Source of the DNA: Candidatus Altimarinota bacterium | GTDB lineage: Bacteria; Patescibacteriota; Gracilibacteria; UBA1369 | Assembly (NCBI GenBank): GCA_041659405.1 | Contig: JBAZYK010000009.1 | Span: 30,001-62,000 of the forward strand | DNA length: 32,000 nucleotides | Direction of reading: 5' to 3' | Shown here: positions 14,362 through 18,713 of the stretch, piece after piece | How the letters are laid out: the number at the start of each line of letters is the position of its first letter | Numbering within the stretch: position 1 is the stretch's first letter | Notes under the pieces: model-generated | What the model saw: the letters and a program-made list of their open reading frames with translations, nothing else | Told to the model about the DNA's origin: nothing | The model's database searches: none | Made by a program: the position numbers and the translations under genes

Positions 14362-14676
14362 CTAAAGATTATTAATTTGTGTAAGTAAGCGCTCTTCTTC
14401 CAAAGCGTCCTGTTTAGTGCTTGCATCCTCGTTTTTCACAAGGCGATCCTTTTTAATATTCTTAATATTCACGGTCAATTTCTGGGAAATTTCTTTATTC
14501 TTCGCCAAAAAACTTTTCTGCGCATGCACAATCATTTTTTGCTCATCTAGGAAAATGTCCGCATATTTAAGCATTAATTCGCCTGTCGCACCCATTACAC
14601 TTTTCTGTAACTCCGCCGGCATTTTTTTAAATGCGTGCGATTTTTGCATGAGTTGTAAGTATTCACCCTGGGTCAT
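14362..14676 (-). CDS. orphan 'short' helical family protein, divergent member, 104 aa
   Basis: 'YLQLMQKSHAFKKMPAELQKSVM' and the C-terminal 'EERLLTQINNL' align with four paralogs. Tightly packed in the operon. Confidence 0.7.
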   Translation of the reverse strand: MTQGEYLQLMQKSHAFKKMPAELQKSVMGATGELMLKYADIFLDEQKMIVHAQKSFLAKNKEISQKLTVNIKNIKKDRLVKNEDASTKQDALEEERLLTQINNL

Positions 14677-14685
14677 AAATTTTAA

Positions 14686-15078
14686 TTAAAACAGTCCAAA
14701 AAATTTCTTTCGTTCCGGCTTATTTGTCGTAGGAACTTGGTTTAAACTGGCCAAAAGTTGCTCGGAAATCTGGATTGAATTCGCCGCATCTTTTTGTTCA
14801 TTTTCCTTAAGCTCAGTTTTATCGATCTCACGTAGAGTAATTTTTATTTCGCTCACTAGCTGAATTTGACGTTCGTCATGTTGCTTCCTTTTGGCTTCTG
14901 CTTCAGCAAAAACGATTTCGGATTTTTTAATTTCCTCCATCGCCGCATTAATTTGCTCATCGCTCGCCAAATTAAAGGCAGTTAAAAGCTCTTGCTGTTC
15001 AGCATTTCCCAGCAGCTTATAACAGGTGGAATTCTGCAACATTTGAACGTACGCCGCGTATAAAGAAGAAATTGGCAT
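14686..15078 (-). CDS. orphan 'short' helical family protein (type B) with basic-hydrophobic C-terminal tail, 130 aa
   Basis: 'YVQMLQNSTCYKLLGNAEQQELLTAFNLASDEQI' is paralogous to 15735-16085. It carries an extra tail, 'TTNKPERKKFFGLF'. Confidence 0.75.
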   Translation of the reverse strand: MPISSLYAAYVQMLQNSTCYKLLGNAEQQELLTAFNLASDEQINAAMEEIKKSEIVFAEAEAKRKQHDERQIQLVSEIKITLREIDKTELKENEQKDAANSIQISEQLLASLNQVPTTNKPERKKFFGLF

Positions 15079-15080
15079 AA

Positions 15081-15704
15081 TTAAGTTGTTTTAGTAGGCA
15101 TAGCTGGAGCTGGCGTTTTAGCTGCTTCTTGAATAGCTCCTACCGTAGACGTTCCCGGAGCTTTTATGTTAGCTTCAAGTGTTTTATCTGTAATATTTAA
15201 AGGCTTGGTAACAGCAGCGATTTTTTCAGCCGGAGAATTAGGTTTAACTTCATCTTTACCAGGAACAAAAGTAGAATCTAAATCGTTTTTTACACCTGCC
15301 GCTTGAGCATCACTCATTTTATTACCACTTGGGGCCTTTTTAAAGAGAGCAAACTCAGACGCCTCTTTTCTAGCTATCGATAAAAGTCTATCTAACAATT
15401 GCTGTGCTATATCTTCGGAAGTTTCCAGTTTGTTTTTTGCATTCTCATTATCACGAGCAACTTGTAGCTTTTTAGAAAGCCGCTCTGCAGCCTCAGTCTT
15501 GCCATCATCTTTTAAATCTTCAACTTTTTGAGCCACTTTTTCATAAAGTTTCTCTCTAACATTTGAGTCATTCATATCTTGCTTCTCGAGCTCCTTCAGG
15601 GTGATGTCAGGCTTTTCAGAAACAATATTAACAGCCGTCACCGTTTCGGGATGCTGATACACAAACCTTTGTGTCCTGTAATTATGAAAAAGTAACGTTT
15701 TCAT
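15081..15704 (-). CDS. orphan 'long' family protein (RFVYQ motif), 207 aa
   Basis: N-terminus MKTLLFHNYRTQRFVYQHPE. The segment 'KLYEKVAQKVEDLKDDGKTEAAERLSKKLQVARDNEN' is paralogous to 16100-16732. The tail is low-complexity and P/A/K/T-rich. Confidence 0.75.
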   Translation of the reverse strand: MKTLLFHNYRTQRFVYQHPETVTAVNIVSEKPDITLKELEKQDMNDSNVREKLYEKVAQKVEDLKDDGKTEAAERLSKKLQVARDNENAKNKLETSEDIAQQLLDRLLSIARKEASEFALFKKAPSGNKMSDAQAAGVKNDLDSTFVPGKDEVKPNSPAEKIAAVTKPLNITDKTLEANIKAPGTSTVGAIQEAAKTPAPAMPTKTT

Positions 15705-15734
15705 TTTTATTTTGGTTAAGATATTAAATATTTT

Positions 15735-16085
15735 TTAAAAATTTTGAGTCAATTTTTGTAGGAGCATTTCCGCTGCTGCTTCTGAATTTTTAGCATCTGC
15801 CTGTTCATTAGCCTGCAGTTCTTTTCTGTTTACCTGCTTGAGCGTTTTTTTGATTTCTTCGGCCATTTTAATTTGTTGGGATTCTTTTTTTTTAAGATCC
15901 ATCTTGAGTTTTTCACTTTCCAGTGAGTCTTTTTTTAGCTCTCCCAGGCCTTTAATCAACTGTTCATCACTCGCGTGTAAAAATTTAGCCATCAAGTCCG
16001 TCTGTTCATCGGGATTCAAAAGTTGATAACTTTTAGATAACTGCAATGCTCTTAAGAATTCTTCTAATAATAGTTTTGTGGCCAT
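15735..16085 (-). CDS. orphan 'short' helical family protein (type B), 116 aa
   Basis: 'FLRALQLSKSYQLLNPDEQTDLMAKFLHASDEQL' and the C-terminal 'AAEMLLQKLTQNF'. Paralog of 14686-15078. Confidence 0.75.
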   Translation of the reverse strand: MATKLLLEEFLRALQLSKSYQLLNPDEQTDLMAKFLHASDEQLIKGLGELKKDSLESEKLKMDLKKKESQQIKMAEEIKKTLKQVNRKELQANEQADAKNSEAAAEMLLQKLTQNF

Positions 16086-16099
16086 ATTTACTTTGATTA

Positions 16100-16732: not shown

Positions 16733-16774
16733 TTTGTTTTTATTTTAAAAATTTATATTAAGATTTTCTTTAGA

Positions 16775-17581
16775 TTATGTGTTTTCAACTTTAGCGACTT
16801 TTTCTTTTTGATTATCCAAATACTGCGCGATTGCAGGATTTGCGTTGCGTACCTCTTTTGTGGCTTCAACCAAATCAACACCAAAATTTTTATCACCATT
16901 AAAGGTCACCTTAAAAGACAATCCCTTATTCGGACTGATTTGATCAGATGCGATATCCCATGATGTCCCCGCGGGTATTTTTGAAAAATCAATTTCTGAA
17001 ATATTTGAAATTTGTTTTTTGATAAGATAAGTCAACTCATCAACTTTTACATAAGATAATGTCTTCAATTTATCAAAAACGCGCCCAATAGCATGACCTA
17101 TTGGCGCATTGGCATTGATTTCAAAAGTTTCAGGCGCATAGGGTTGATCATCCGCAGACGCAACCAATTCAGCGGCCTTATCTGCTTTTACAGGTGCCCC
17201 CGAATAATACTCCTGCATGATTTTTCTAATCGCAGCCAGGCCTTCTGTAATTGACTTCTTCCTATAATCTTCCCTTTCCGCGCGAATACTTTGAGGATCT
17301 TTCAACGCATCTAATTTTTCTATAGCCATTTGTGCCTTACTTTTTAGGAGGTCCCGCATTTGTTGCGTACCAGCTTCGATTTTTTTACCATTTTGAATGT
17401 CTCCCAAAACTCTTTTTGTCTCGTTATATTTACGTTCATAGGTATCTTCATCAAAATCAATAGCCGTTTTTGGTGTCACGGAAGCCCTTTCAGATCCTTC
17501 ACTCGGCGCGGGAGCACTTGCATAAACAAGTCTTTTAGCTAAAACCCCCAAATTGAATTTTGATTGTAAAAAAGTTTTCAT
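16775..17581 (-). CDS. orphan 'long' family protein (RLVYA motif) with globular C-terminal domain, 268 aa
   Basis: N-terminus MKTFLQSKFNLGVLAKRLVYASAP. The C-terminal 'SWDIASDQISPNKGLSFKVTFNGDKNFGVDLVEATKEVRN' resembles the unit repeated in the 911-aa protein. Confidence 0.75.
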   Translation of the reverse strand: MKTFLQSKFNLGVLAKRLVYASAPAPSEGSERASVTPKTAIDFDEDTYERKYNETKRVLGDIQNGKKIEAGTQQMRDLLKSKAQMAIEKLDALKDPQSIRAEREDYRKKSITEGLAAIRKIMQEYYSGAPVKADKAAELVASADDQPYAPETFEINANAPIGHAIGRVFDKLKTLSYVKVDELTYLIKKQISNISEIDFSKIPAGTSWDIASDQISPNKGLSFKVTFNGDKNFGVDLVEATKEVRNANPAIAQYLDNQKEKVAKVENT

Positions 17582-17588
17582 AAAGTTT

Positions 17589-17933
17589 TTATAAATGATT
17601 TAATAAATTATCGGCTAATGTTGAAGATTGCCCGATTTCGATTTTTTCCTGTTCCACTCTAACATCCTTCTCCATATCGTTTTTTAGCTTTATTACCTGC
17701 AATAAATCCTCCTGCATTTGGGCCTGTTGCTGTTGATCTAAGACTTGCCCGTGTTCAAAACGTTGTGCCTCTTTCATCAGCGTCTGCATCAATTCTTCCT
17801 GCCCCTTTTGTGGCAAATTTGCGATTTGTTGCATGAGCGTAGCTTTTTCCTCCTCAGCCAGGCTTTGAATACTGACAGAATTCATTACTAGTTCCCGTAA
17901 TTGCTGGTTGTTAATTGTTGTGTAATCAATCAT
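17589..17933 (-). CDS. orphan 'short' helical family protein (type A), 114 aa
   Basis: 'QQLRELVMNSVSIQSLAEEEKATLMQQIANLPQKGQEELMQTL' and the C-terminal 'LADNLLNHL'. Paralog of 18351-18713. Confidence 0.75.
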   Translation of the reverse strand: MIDYTTINNQQLRELVMNSVSIQSLAEEEKATLMQQIANLPQKGQEELMQTLMKEAQRFEHGQVLDQQQQAQMQEDLLQVIKLKNDMEKDVRVEQEKIEIGQSSTLADNLLNHL

Positions 17934-17939
17934 ATTGGC

Positions 17940-18305
17940 TTAATTAAGCAGTTTTCCGTATTGTTCAATAATTGAATTAATTTTTCCGAGGTTTGCCGCA
18001 ACAGCTTCCTTACTTAAATATTTCTCTTCTTTAGCAAGGATTTCATCTAAACTGCCCTTAGCTTCCTGCCGTGCTTCTTCAATTTTTGGAGAAGTAGCAG
18101 GCTTTTCTAAAAGATCTAAAGCATTAAATTTTGCCTTTTGATAGCTTTCATCAGCCGCCATAAGACCTTCCTCAGCGGGTTTTTCTGTAGCAGCCGAAGG
18201 CAAAACGTTAATATTTTTTTGTTGATCTGGGCCTACCTGAAAGATTGTACGAGCAGGCAAAAATGTTATGTTAGAGCCAAATTGTAAGTATTTTATTTTC
18301 CCCAT
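17940..18305 (-). CDS. orphan 'long' family protein, minimal member (RTIFQ motif), 121 aa
   Basis: N-terminus MGKIKYLQFGSNITFLPARTIFQVGPDQ aligns with the family. The remainder is helical and K/E/A-rich. Confidence 0.7.
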   Translation of the reverse strand: MGKIKYLQFGSNITFLPARTIFQVGPDQQKNINVLPSAATEKPAEEGLMAADESYQKAKFNALDLLEKPATSPKIEEARQEAKGSLDEILAKEEKYLSKEAVAANLGKINSIIEQYGKLLN

Positions 18306-18350
18306 ATTTTTATTTTAAGATTTTTTATTTTAAACTTGCTGCAATTTTTT

Positions 18351-18713
18351 TTAGAAATTAATTTCCTTCAGCAGATCCTCCGCTTCCCGCTGCGATCTTG
18401 CGACTTCCACTGTTTCGTTTTCCACCCGGACTACAATTTCAAAATTTCTTTTGATTATCCGAACTTCAGCCGTTCTTTTTTCAATAATTTTTATGTCCAT
18501 TTCAGGTGTGATCCCTTTTGCTCTTTTGGCTGCCACAATTTGCCTTTGTTCATCTTCCAGCGCCTCGATCATGGGTTGTTGAGCTTCTACAGGCAGATTG
18601 GCCACCTGGAAAATCATTTTTTGGATATTCCCTTCATCCAGCGAATGAATCGACTCAGACGCCATCACCAGGTATCGCAGTTTTTCGTTTTGTATGGGAT
18701 AGTAATAAGGCAT
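18351..18713 (-). CDS. orphan 'short' helical family protein (type A), 120 aa, first gene of the operon
   Basis: I place the start at ATG 18713 (MPYYYPIQNEKLRYLVMASESIHSLDEG...). This aligns residue-for-residue with the start of 17589-17933 and lies downstream of the predicted promoter. The track start at 18803 would overlap the divergent femAB start. Confidence 0.7.
   Translation of the reverse strand: MPYYYPIQNEKLRYLVMASESIHSLDEGNIQKMIFQVANLPVEAQQPMIEALEDEQRQIVAAKRAKGITPEMDIKIIEKRTAEVRIIKRNFEIVVRVENETVEVARSQREAEDLLKEINF

Follow-up and report, generated by a model that had tools for sequence, protein, structure and literature searches.

The window described here is a stretch of 32,000 nucleotides (nt) from a Candidatus Altimarinota bacterium (assembly GCA_041659405.1, contig JBAZYK010000009.1, positions 30,001 to 62,000 of the forward strand). 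Between the division genes ftsA-ftsZ (10397-12968, plus strand) and femAB (18793-19878, plus strand), it contains a tightly spaced run of ten minus-strand genes with intergenic gaps of 2-45 nt. Five of these encode small proteins of 104-130 amino acids (aa), here termed A1, A2, B1, B2 and C. The other five encode longer proteins that share a short N-terminal element, the tag, with a sixth, 911-aa protein, whose gene lies past femAB and is followed by def. In the reading favoured below, the small proteins may act as receptors or adaptors for the tagged ones. The small genes, in the order in which they would be transcribed, are as follows.

18351-18713, minus strand: A1, small head-and-stalk protein, 120 aa, first gene of the operon; 122.8 bits with the family profile
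17589-17933, minus strand: A2, small head-and-stalk protein, 114 aa; E=9e-12 to A1, 95.2 bits with the family profile
15735-16085, minus strand: B1, small head-and-stalk protein, 116 aa; E=1.5e-18 to B2, 19.0 bits with the family profile
14686-15078, minus strand: B2, small head-and-stalk protein, 130 aa, with an extra basic-hydrophobic tail, PERKKFFGLF; 19.7 bits with the family profile
14362-14676, minus strand: C, divergent small member, 104 aa, isoelectric point (pI) 9.13; 26.1 bits with the family profile

The tagged genes, with the proteins regarded as candidate clients, are the following.

17940-18305, minus strand: tagged candidate client, 121 aa, tag ...ITFLPARTIFQVGP; N-terminus homologous to a 551-aa protein that follows A1' in the related locus L104
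16775-17581, minus strand: tagged candidate client, 268 aa, tag ...GVLAKRLVYASAP; 7 nt from A2
16100-16732, minus strand: tagged candidate client, 210 aa, tag ...SKMEKRLVMQY; ortholog of L104_217
15081-15704, minus strand: tagged candidate client, 207 aa, tag ...NYRTQRFVYQHP; paralog of the 210-aa gene
13042-14358, minus strand: tagged candidate client, 438 aa, tag ...AFLNNRLVFQVAGP; last gene of the operon, convergent on ftsZ, 3 nt from C
19956-22691, minus strand: tagged protein, 911 aa, MKIHFFSPNRLVFQNKP; no small partner, separate transcription unit between def and femAB

The original prediction had placed five small open reading frames (ORFs) at these minus-strand positions, and both the coordinates and the sequences quoted for them are correct. 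Independent gene calls on two public assemblies return the same products of 120, 114, 116, 130 and 104 aa, which argues that the ORFs are real; identical proteins occur in NCBI records labelled Candidatus Gracilibacteria bacterium, under locus tags WC843_049xx. The A1 reading frame can be extended to position 18803; the start at MPYYY is favoured by the start point of all homologs and by a promoter-like match at 18770-18742.

The degree of relatedness among the five varies. Blastp confirms the proposed division into two subtypes, aligning A1 with A2 at 31% identity (E=9e-12) and B1 with B2 at 37% (E=1.5e-18). It gives no link between A and B, and C matches A1 weakly (E=0.03). In profile comparisons the subtypes come together. 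The A and B alignments are collinear across 102 columns in hhalign (probability 67%, E=5e-5), and with a hidden Markov model (HMM) of 203 A-type relatives the scores are 19.0 bits for B1, 19.7 for B2 and 26.1 for C, where the maximum among 2000 composition-matched shuffles is 11.0 bits. By score, all five match the family profile, which comprises the head motif I-x-N-x-x-L-R-x-L-V-x-x-S, an invariant spacer Glu and a terminal ΦΦxxΦ (Φ, hydrophobic residue), and their joint alignment is collinear from the head motif through the C-terminal motif. On this profile evidence, the five ORFs are paralogs of one small-protein family, as had been claimed. Their description as acidic holds for three or four of the five (pI 5.15, 4.57, 6.62 and 5.12 for A1, A2, B1 and B2) and fails for C, which is basic.

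The family extends well beyond the window. An exhaustive HMMER search of 1.84 billion cluster representatives returns 227 clusters (50% identity) at E<=1e-3, and among the best 150 of these nearly all proteins are 100-135 aa long and match end to end. Word-indexed searches yield 64 proteins with the A alignment and 7 with the B alignment; no precomputed Pfam domains are found among these hits, and their source names are nearly all 'hypothetical protein'. A metagenome scan gives only 6 loci, and a scan of viral contigs for the small family gives nothing. To date, the small family is known only from contigs of the Peribacteria/Peregrinibacteria type. Duplication of small genes by themselves also occurs, as some metagenome contigs have two A1-like genes in tandem (L084:263-1043 and L088:6-725).

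Membership of a known small-protein family with an unrelated role had been named as one outcome that would refute the original proposal. No known family is matched: the five window proteins and 88 family members give nothing meaningful against Pfam, NCBIfam, PHROGs, PADLOC and PDB sequences, only scattered sub-threshold hits. The library searches covered Pfam, NCBIfam, PHROGs and PADLOC for the five small and six long proteins, and Pfam for the 88 family members. PDB sequence-profile hits to designed TIM barrels (E=0.07) and TRAP1 (E=0.02) are judged to be due to chance. A relationship to CpxP/Spy LTxxQ proteins or DUF3106-type hairpins was also rejected; DUF3106 appears weakly in 5 of 88 members, with a best E of 0.018 and far below threshold, and the 'LPEExQ' resemblance is a low-complexity pattern. 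On the strength of these searches, the small-protein family is previously undescribed and has no known relatives.

Structure prediction gives the A and B subtypes a common shape. The AlphaFold2 model of A1, made with the family alignment (predicted local distance difference test score, pLDDT, 82.6), has an extended N-terminal segment and helices at residues 10-18, 20-23 and 27-38 that pack on a helix at 42-65; after a short break, a further helix spans residues 70-119. In the B2 model (pLDDT 85.8), helices at 5-16, 18-22 and 25-34 are followed by one continuous helix at 40-113 and by a tail that is disordered and of low confidence. The predicted fold is thus a three-helix head packed on the base of a stalk helix of ~50-75 residues, and the architecture shared by the two models supports the relatedness of A and B. 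Searched with Foldseek against the PDB, both models retrieve generic three-helix bundles and the RecR HhH domain, with a best E of 1.9.

The most conserved positions lie in the head, namely I7, N9, L12, R13, L15, S19 (98%) and L25; E55 and E95 are nearly invariant across the family. Hydrophobic a/d-type positions run along the stalk from ~69 to 90. The next 18 residues (positions 91-108) form a charged spacer with no conserved hydrophobics, after which ΦΦxxΦ occupies positions 109-113, frequently with one more hydrophobic residue three positions further.

This C-terminal motif, originally described as LLxx[LI] behind an acidic patch, is conserved in homologs. [LI][LI]..[LI] is present in the last 13 residues of 84% of 203 members and of 3.8% of 2516 background ORFs; for the strict form LL..[LI], the corresponding figures are 54% and 1.3%. 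Acidic residues usually precede the motif. It had further been stated that all five proteins end with it. The motif is indeed present in each, but B2 runs on for 17 residues past LLASL (VPTTNKPERKKFFGLF) and ends in PERKKFFGLF. The B2 relatives P0066-P0070 also have a linker and KKF[FL]G[LI]F after the motif, and P0200 ends in KKKKGWFN. Two other members (L087:3395-3838 and L089:1661-2083; family HMM 24.9 and 38.7 bits) carry a Lys cluster and a transmembrane helix after the motif, with a mean Kyte-Doolittle hydropathy in a 19-residue window (KD19) of 2.7-3.0. As the Lys cluster is N-terminal to the helix, the positive-inside rule suggests that these members are tail-anchored, with cytoplasmic head and stalk. 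The context of P0030 includes a 143-aa family member that also has a C-terminal transmembrane helix. The notion that each cluster has one membrane-anchored paralog was dropped, as L104 has none.

The motif can be viewed in more than one way. Because the 18-residue charged spacer parts it from the heptad stalk, it looks like a separate short linear motif; because it is internal in B2, P0066-70 and the transmembrane-tailed relatives, it may equally be an oligomerisation clasp or a membrane-proximal element. An explanation built on the latter point takes LLxxL to be the last hydrophobic turn of a dimerising or oligomerising helix, not a docking peptide, and the 'family' to be a product of generic coiled-coil composition. 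The motif does lie on the same predicted helix as the stalk, and charged helical proteins are prone to many weak spurious matches. Composition of this kind would nevertheless not place the strongest conservation in the head rather than the stalk (I7, N9, L12, R13, L15 and S19), nor account for end-to-end matches in 227 clusters of uniform length or for B1, B2 and C scores above all 2000 shuffles, and the spacer that separates the motif from the heptad segment lacks a/d hydrophobics. The explanation as a whole is therefore judged quite improbable, though the motif by itself may still act as a clasp. Presumed resemblances to a clamp-binding motif, to a PilN-like INLLP peptide and to a retro-FtsZ C-terminal peptide were dropped.

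The long proteins are united by their N-termini. In all six of those in the window, a tag of ~25 residues with the pattern aromatic-x3-5-[RK]-Φ-[VI]-[FY]-xxx-P leads into a linker rich in Pro, Glu, Ala and Lys. The 121, 268 and 207 aa genes that are interleaved with the small genes can hence be grouped with the 210, 438 and 911 aa genes in a single 'long' class. The tag is probably a β-hairpin. A position-specific scoring matrix for the tag reaches at least 14 bits in 10 of 2173 N-termini and in 0 of 6638 internal windows; since the seeds account for the N-terminal hits, only the internal windows constitute an independent control. Against a database of 5.8 billion proteins, the tag profile gives 15 candidates, none of which is significant.

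Outside the tag, the bodies of the long proteins are mostly unrelated to each other. The C-terminal region of the 911-aa protein has homologs in L087_1035, L089_1123 and L104_842 (blastp 5e-21 to 9e-24) and no Pfam match; residues ~630-910 form a repeated, apparently globular region with recurring '...Y.V.G...' β-like motifs. A Pfam search of 16 tagged proteins finds no domains, those of toxins, enzymes or immunity proteins included, with the sole exception of a WG_beta_rep repeat in L011_263. The tagged proteins have no transmembrane segment and no signal-like hydrophobic core, contain 0-5 Cys and mostly consist of 30-40% charged residues; the 210-aa protein is largely charged and probably disordered. 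Prepilin or Sec signals were rejected for lack of a hydrophobic core, with a maximum KD19 below 1.6 except in L096_422 (1.76, at residue 341 and hence not N-terminal). A Tat signal was rejected as well, since neither a twin arginine nor a hydrophobic region is found.

Small and tagged genes are systematically adjacent, as the original prediction had proposed for small and large genes at this locus. A survey of 28 small genes includes 21 with a testable non-small gene downstream, and in ~16-17 of these 21 the gene directly downstream on the same strand is tagged (gap -4 to +45 nt). Within the window, the pairing is direct for A1, A2, B1 and C and indirect for B2, which is followed by C. Loci that were fetched via the small protein without FtsZ (L083, L085-L092 and L099) show it as well. 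The downstream tags in such loci include NFLENRIIFAEAP in L083, KRHVFFNP and KRVVFFNP in L085/86, SEKNIYK...GPG in L090 and SFLPWRQVFFAEAG in L099, as well as those of L087/89 and L088. The suggestion that small subtypes might track particular long-protein subtypes in related genomes has gained some ground: A1-like small genes occur with F-x-P-[AK]-[RK]-x-[VI]-F tags and L011-like ones with E-[NK]-[RN]-[LI]-[VI]-F tags, a correlation that may reflect shared descent only.

The pairing is not one-to-one, as had already been noted. The 911-aa and 210-aa proteins as well as L087_501, L096_422 and L011_263 are tagged and have no small neighbour. Because such proteins exist, a shared receptor family fits better than a set of dedicated chaperones. 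The earlier idea that A1 might serve the 911-aa gene across an inserted femAB has become unlikely, given that the usual order is small gene followed by client and that the tagged 121-aa gene follows A1. In L087 and L089, genes for relatives of the 911-aa protein (1035-1123 aa) are immediately preceded by a transmembrane-tailed small gene, a kind that is missing from the window.

In L096, the most divergent small gene examined (P0213) is followed by a 1126-aa protein (L096:8373-11753) without a recognisable tag, and a canonical tag (MTAFFAENRLVF) is found 4 kb off on a 422-aa protein, beside a Mur ligase gene. Either the tag of the 1126-aa protein has diverged past recognition, or pairing is looser in that lineage. 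A seemingly natural adaptor-client fusion, P0084 (L093:321-1007, 228 aa), was rejected: it lies on a contig of 1.3 kb and appears to be an artefact of read-through or a frameshift, with 114 additional residues that resemble non-coding translation.

The reading preferred here, to which a probability of roughly 0.4 may be assigned, is that the small proteins are conserved subunits that serve, at the membrane's inner face, as receptors or adaptors for hypervariable tagged clients. The head would be the cognate receptor for the N-terminal tag and would act as an adaptor, tether or chaperone, and the stalk with its C-terminal motif would tie the bound client either to the membrane or to another partner. 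In some paralogs, a transmembrane helix at the C-terminus or a basic-hydrophobic tail may provide a direct link to the membrane, leaving the head in the cytoplasm. In this manner a variable set of clients, encoded at a locus beside ftsA-ftsZ-femAB-def, could be recruited or handed over at the inner membrane face; the clients might be retained as division or envelope scaffolds, or be exported. Binding between head and tag is proposed because conservation is highest on the head helix and N-terminal strand in the small protein, and on the tag in its large counterpart. The original idea of dedicated adaptors or chaperones agrees with this proposal in outline; what would change is the emphasis, which moves to a relation between tag and receptor that is not strictly one-to-one.

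Evolutionary rates provide a further line of evidence. Between the window and the orthologous cluster in L104, FtsA is 98%, FtsZ 94%, Def 80% and FemAB 75% identical. Among the small proteins, A1 is 84%, B1 67-68% and C 60% identical, with a proportion of non-synonymous differences (pN) of 0.08-0.24. The long proteins are 30-39% identical, with a pN of 0.41-0.49; the individual values are 39% for the 911-aa protein, 29-30% for the 438-aa protein (against L104_389) and 36-38% for the 210-aa protein (against L104_217). The ratio of non-synonymous to synonymous substitution rates (dN/dS) is 0.08 for A1, 0.11 for B1 and 0.16 for C, which points to purifying selection; as dS is close to saturation, the rate contrasts rest mainly on pN and amino-acid identity. 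In A1, B1 and C, non-synonymous change is three to five times slower than in the long proteins. Judged by this conservation, the three are expressed, constrained genes. The divergence of the long proteins is even along their length, with the tag as the best-kept piece, and their lengths shift as well (121 versus 551 aa and 268 versus 842 aa). A phmmer comparison of all window proteins with the ORFs of 80 FtsZ-anchored genome loci gives few hits because these proteins diverge fast. The pattern in A1, B1 and C is the one expected if a conserved adaptor serves variable clients; A2 does not fit it.

The comparison also sheds light on the history of the locus. L104 has one unit of a 217-aa gene and a B1-like gene (L104:15021-16028) where the window has two, 210 with B1 and 207 with B2. 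The 207/B2 unit is interpreted as a local, apparently recent tandem duplication, because L104_217 hits both the 210-aa and the 207-aa protein and L104 is without a 207/B2 unit. After this duplication, it looks like B2 gained the KKFFGLF tail or B1 lost it; a B1-like protein from another genome (P0070) carries a tail of the KKFFGLF type.

Several points weigh against the proposed receptor-client relation. With 30% identity and a pN of 0.46, A2 has diverged as much as the long proteins, and its orthology to the 124-aa protein of L104 is uncertain. The fast evolution of the long proteins could stem from weak constraint on charged or disordered sequence and not from a client role, and vertical inheritance of the operon could explain both the adjacency and the subtype correlation. 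Besides the several tagged proteins without an adjacent small gene, there are small genes in front of genes with no tag or a degenerate one, namely the 1126-aa gene of L096, the one at the A-type gene of L089, and those in L013 and L084. The link to FtsZ and FtsA is one of synteny only. No hub or ATPase was identified for the C-terminal motif. Finally, the L104 cluster is without a tail-bearing paralog, and membrane anchoring is therefore not universal.

Wherever a locus has sufficient flank, the module is found no more than a few kb from ftsA-ftsZ, femAB and def/prfA, and linkage to ftsZ, femAB and def is also seen in loci retrieved via the small protein alone. The simplest arrangement, in L096, consists of def, a small gene, a ~1100-aa gene, femAB, ftsZ and ftsA, of which the window has an expanded version. 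The window FtsZ is 74-79% identical to FtsZ from metagenome-assembled genomes of Candidatus Peribacteria/Peregrinibacteria, which places the source within the Candidate Phyla Radiation, and the hosts with recognisable context are all Peribacteria-like.

This invariable linkage suggests a second explanation, in which the genes encode lineage-specific division or envelope scaffolds. The small proteins would be coiled-coil organisers similar to ZapA, ZapB, GpsB or DivIVA, with FtsZ, FtsA or peptidoglycan synthesis as their target. The long proteins would be scaffolds in their own right, of coiled-coil or disordered type, and their adjacency to the small genes would be a matter of co-regulation, not of binding. 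GpsB/DivIVA and ZapA are ~100 aa long, combine a small N-terminal domain with a coiled-coil helix and are encoded near division genes, and GpsB docks short N-terminal cytoplasmic peptides of its partners. The small proteins resemble these division adaptors in size, in the combination of a head with a coiled coil, and in location. They differ in their all-α head, for which Foldseek gives no E below 1.9, and in their candidate clients, which are soluble and hypervariable and are not penicillin-binding proteins or FtsZ. Models for ZapA, ZapB, DivIVA/GpsB and SepF give no hits at E<=1 for the five proteins, and are not among the 25 most frequent families for the 88 members.

A more specific likeness concerns the tails. 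FtsA and MinD have C-terminal membrane-targeting sequences with short, basic-plus-hydrophobic ends. Tails of the B2 type only (KKFFGLF, KKFLGIF and KKKKGWFN) are similar to these, and to the C-terminal end of this genome's FtsA, ...GWVKGLFP; they differ in being ~7-10 residues long and, in the AlphaFold model, disordered with low confidence. Synteny is weak evidence for a role in division because gene order may simply be inherited, and the order of the core genes is conserved within the class regardless. The long proteins also diverge too fast, and are too variable in length and copy number, for core division parts, as FtsA and FtsZ are kept at 94-98%. Moreover, the division-scaffold reading leaves the recurrent tag directly after the small genes unexplained, and it is considered unlikely.

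A third explanation, rather doubtful but less so than the previous one, concerns secretion. Tag and small partner would form a pre-secretion complex for Sec-independent export, and the long proteins would be surface-exposed or secreted for interaction with a host, as a functional analogue of the Lap1-4/LXG pairs of type VIIb secretion or of type III/IV chaperone-effector pairs. Lap1-Lap4 are small helical targeting factors of LXG toxins (type VIIb secretion system, T7SSb; PMC10801868; PMC9600955); they fall into several subtypes, are encoded upstream of the toxin genes and have a motif that is needed for export (PMC10801868). The layout is similar here, with a conserved N-terminus on polymorphic large proteins and at least two subtypes of small α-helical partners upstream (PMC10801868). 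The 30-39% identity of the long proteins, where FtsA is at 98%, is typical of exposed proteins in an arms race. The long proteins have no Sec signal peptide, so that export would need a dedicated signal, and tail-anchored family members could serve as membrane receptors.

The parallel can be examined at the level of individual elements. As in Lap/LXG pairs, a small partner is encoded upstream of a larger protein with a conserved N-terminus (~16-17 of 21 small genes), and functional importance has been proposed in both cases for a short conserved motif of the small partner. In Lap proteins, a helix-turn-helix hairpin forms a bundle with an LXG domain, itself helical and ~200 aa long; the small proteins have a three-helix head and one long stalk without such a hairpin, and EsxA is retrieved by Foldseek at E=6.3 with a TM-score of at most 0.27. 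Unlike LXG, the client element is a tag of ~25 residues, probably a β-hairpin, with a flexible linker, and unlike Lap, some family members are tail-anchored membrane proteins. No Pfam match at E<=1 to WXG100, DUF3130 (Lap1), DUF3958 (Lap2), DUF5344 or DUF5082 is found for the five window proteins, nor any hit to LXG; the same WXG100 and Lap models are not among the 25 most frequently matched families for the 88 members. None of the five has a WxG motif, and only 8 of 212 members have [YF]xxx[DE] within their last 30 residues. The likeness to Lap is thus an analogy of layout and not membership, because the sequence models, the hairpin fold, the WxG/FxxxD motifs and a nearby EssC are all absent.

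The wider surroundings also speak against export. No EssC/FtsK-like ATPase or other secretion component is present in ~52 kb around the locus, or in related loci, and toxin, enzyme and immunity domains are absent from the 16 tagged proteins, which show WG_beta_rep only. The long proteins are nearly Cys-free, whereas exported proteins noted in Peribacteria are often Cys-rich (PMC4736985).

Comparison with other chaperone-based systems leads to a similar picture of partial likeness. None of the FliS, FlgN, FliT or CesT-like models and structures is matched significantly in Pfam, NCBIfam, PDB or Foldseek searches. FliS, FlgN, class I chaperones, IcmS/IcmW and VirE1 are small, often acidic proteins that are encoded beside their client, bind a client terminus and dock it to a membrane ATPase or coupling protein. 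The small proteins differ from these type III, flagellar and type IV chaperones in that no such apparatus is visible nearby, one member is basic and several are membrane-anchored. SspB consists of a β-rich dimeric body, a disordered linker and a C-terminal peptide that docks to ClpX. The succession of client-binding domain, spacer and short conserved C-terminal peptide is shared with SspB, but the two show no homology, the corresponding linker here is helical and rigid, a connection to Clp was not found, and a membrane anchor sometimes comes after the motif.

Members of the Candidate Phyla Radiation (CPR; also known as Patescibacteria) are without most known division accessory proteins and many secretion systems, and their envelope organisation and host contact are little understood. 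In this setting the receptor-client proposal may be taken one step further, with considerable reserve, to an undescribed targeting system of Peribacteria. The tag of ~25 residues on hypervariable proteins would be read by head-and-stalk receptors, some of them tail-anchored, for delivery to the membrane or division site, or for a new Sec-independent route of export or surface display in host interaction. The locus offers a testable handle on such questions, with a defined tag, a receptor family of 227 clusters, clients that diverge about as fast as exposed arms-race proteins, and a fixed position beside ftsAZ. If the proposal is true, the tag could list the client repertoire of any Peribacteria genome, and the motif could be used to find the docking hub; if the pairing is false, a well-delimited new protein family with a confident fold prediction remains. 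Literature on Peribacteria FtsZ, on CPR division proteins and on WXG100 in Patescibacteria yielded nothing relevant.

Two candidate regulatory elements flank the genes described above.

18742-18770, minus strand: promoter-like site TTGAGT-17-TATAAT with extended TG, upstream of A1; best sigma-70-like match in the region
22781-22759: terminator-like hairpin in the 147-nt gap between the 911-aa gene and def, a gap with no small gene

The promoter-like site is a consensus match only, and the number of such sites in the region does not exceed the shuffled expectation. Rfam and tRNA scans of the window are empty, and ~20 kb of extra flank from the same genome contains no additional tagged or small-family genes.

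Other genes of the neighbourhood are of separate interest. A small T4SS_pilin (PF18895) gene lies at 7182-7553 (plus strand) beside rpsP and a KH-domain gene, in a layout that is also found in related Peribacteria loci; no other type IV secretion genes are in view. Immediately before ftsA, at 9457-9979 (plus strand), there is a ParE-like toxin gene with a candidate antitoxin of 83 aa upstream. A HicA-like toxin with a 140-aa partner is encoded near prfA in L100 (L100:9253-9914), and L011-L013 and L099 have other toxin-antitoxin or AbiEii genes at equivalent spots. The neighbourhood thus appears to accept insertions, because these positions hold different toxin-antitoxin or AbiEii genes in related loci. 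A 426-aa protein encoded at 1930-3210 (minus strand) has two SLH domains (E=4e-19), which is consistent with an S-layer-bearing, Gram-positive-like envelope. Finally, a gene conserved beside def in this genome (23430-24419, minus strand) encodes a 329-aa protein without a Pfam hit; it contains a GDGVGG-type stretch that may be reminiscent of PP2C-like phosphatases.

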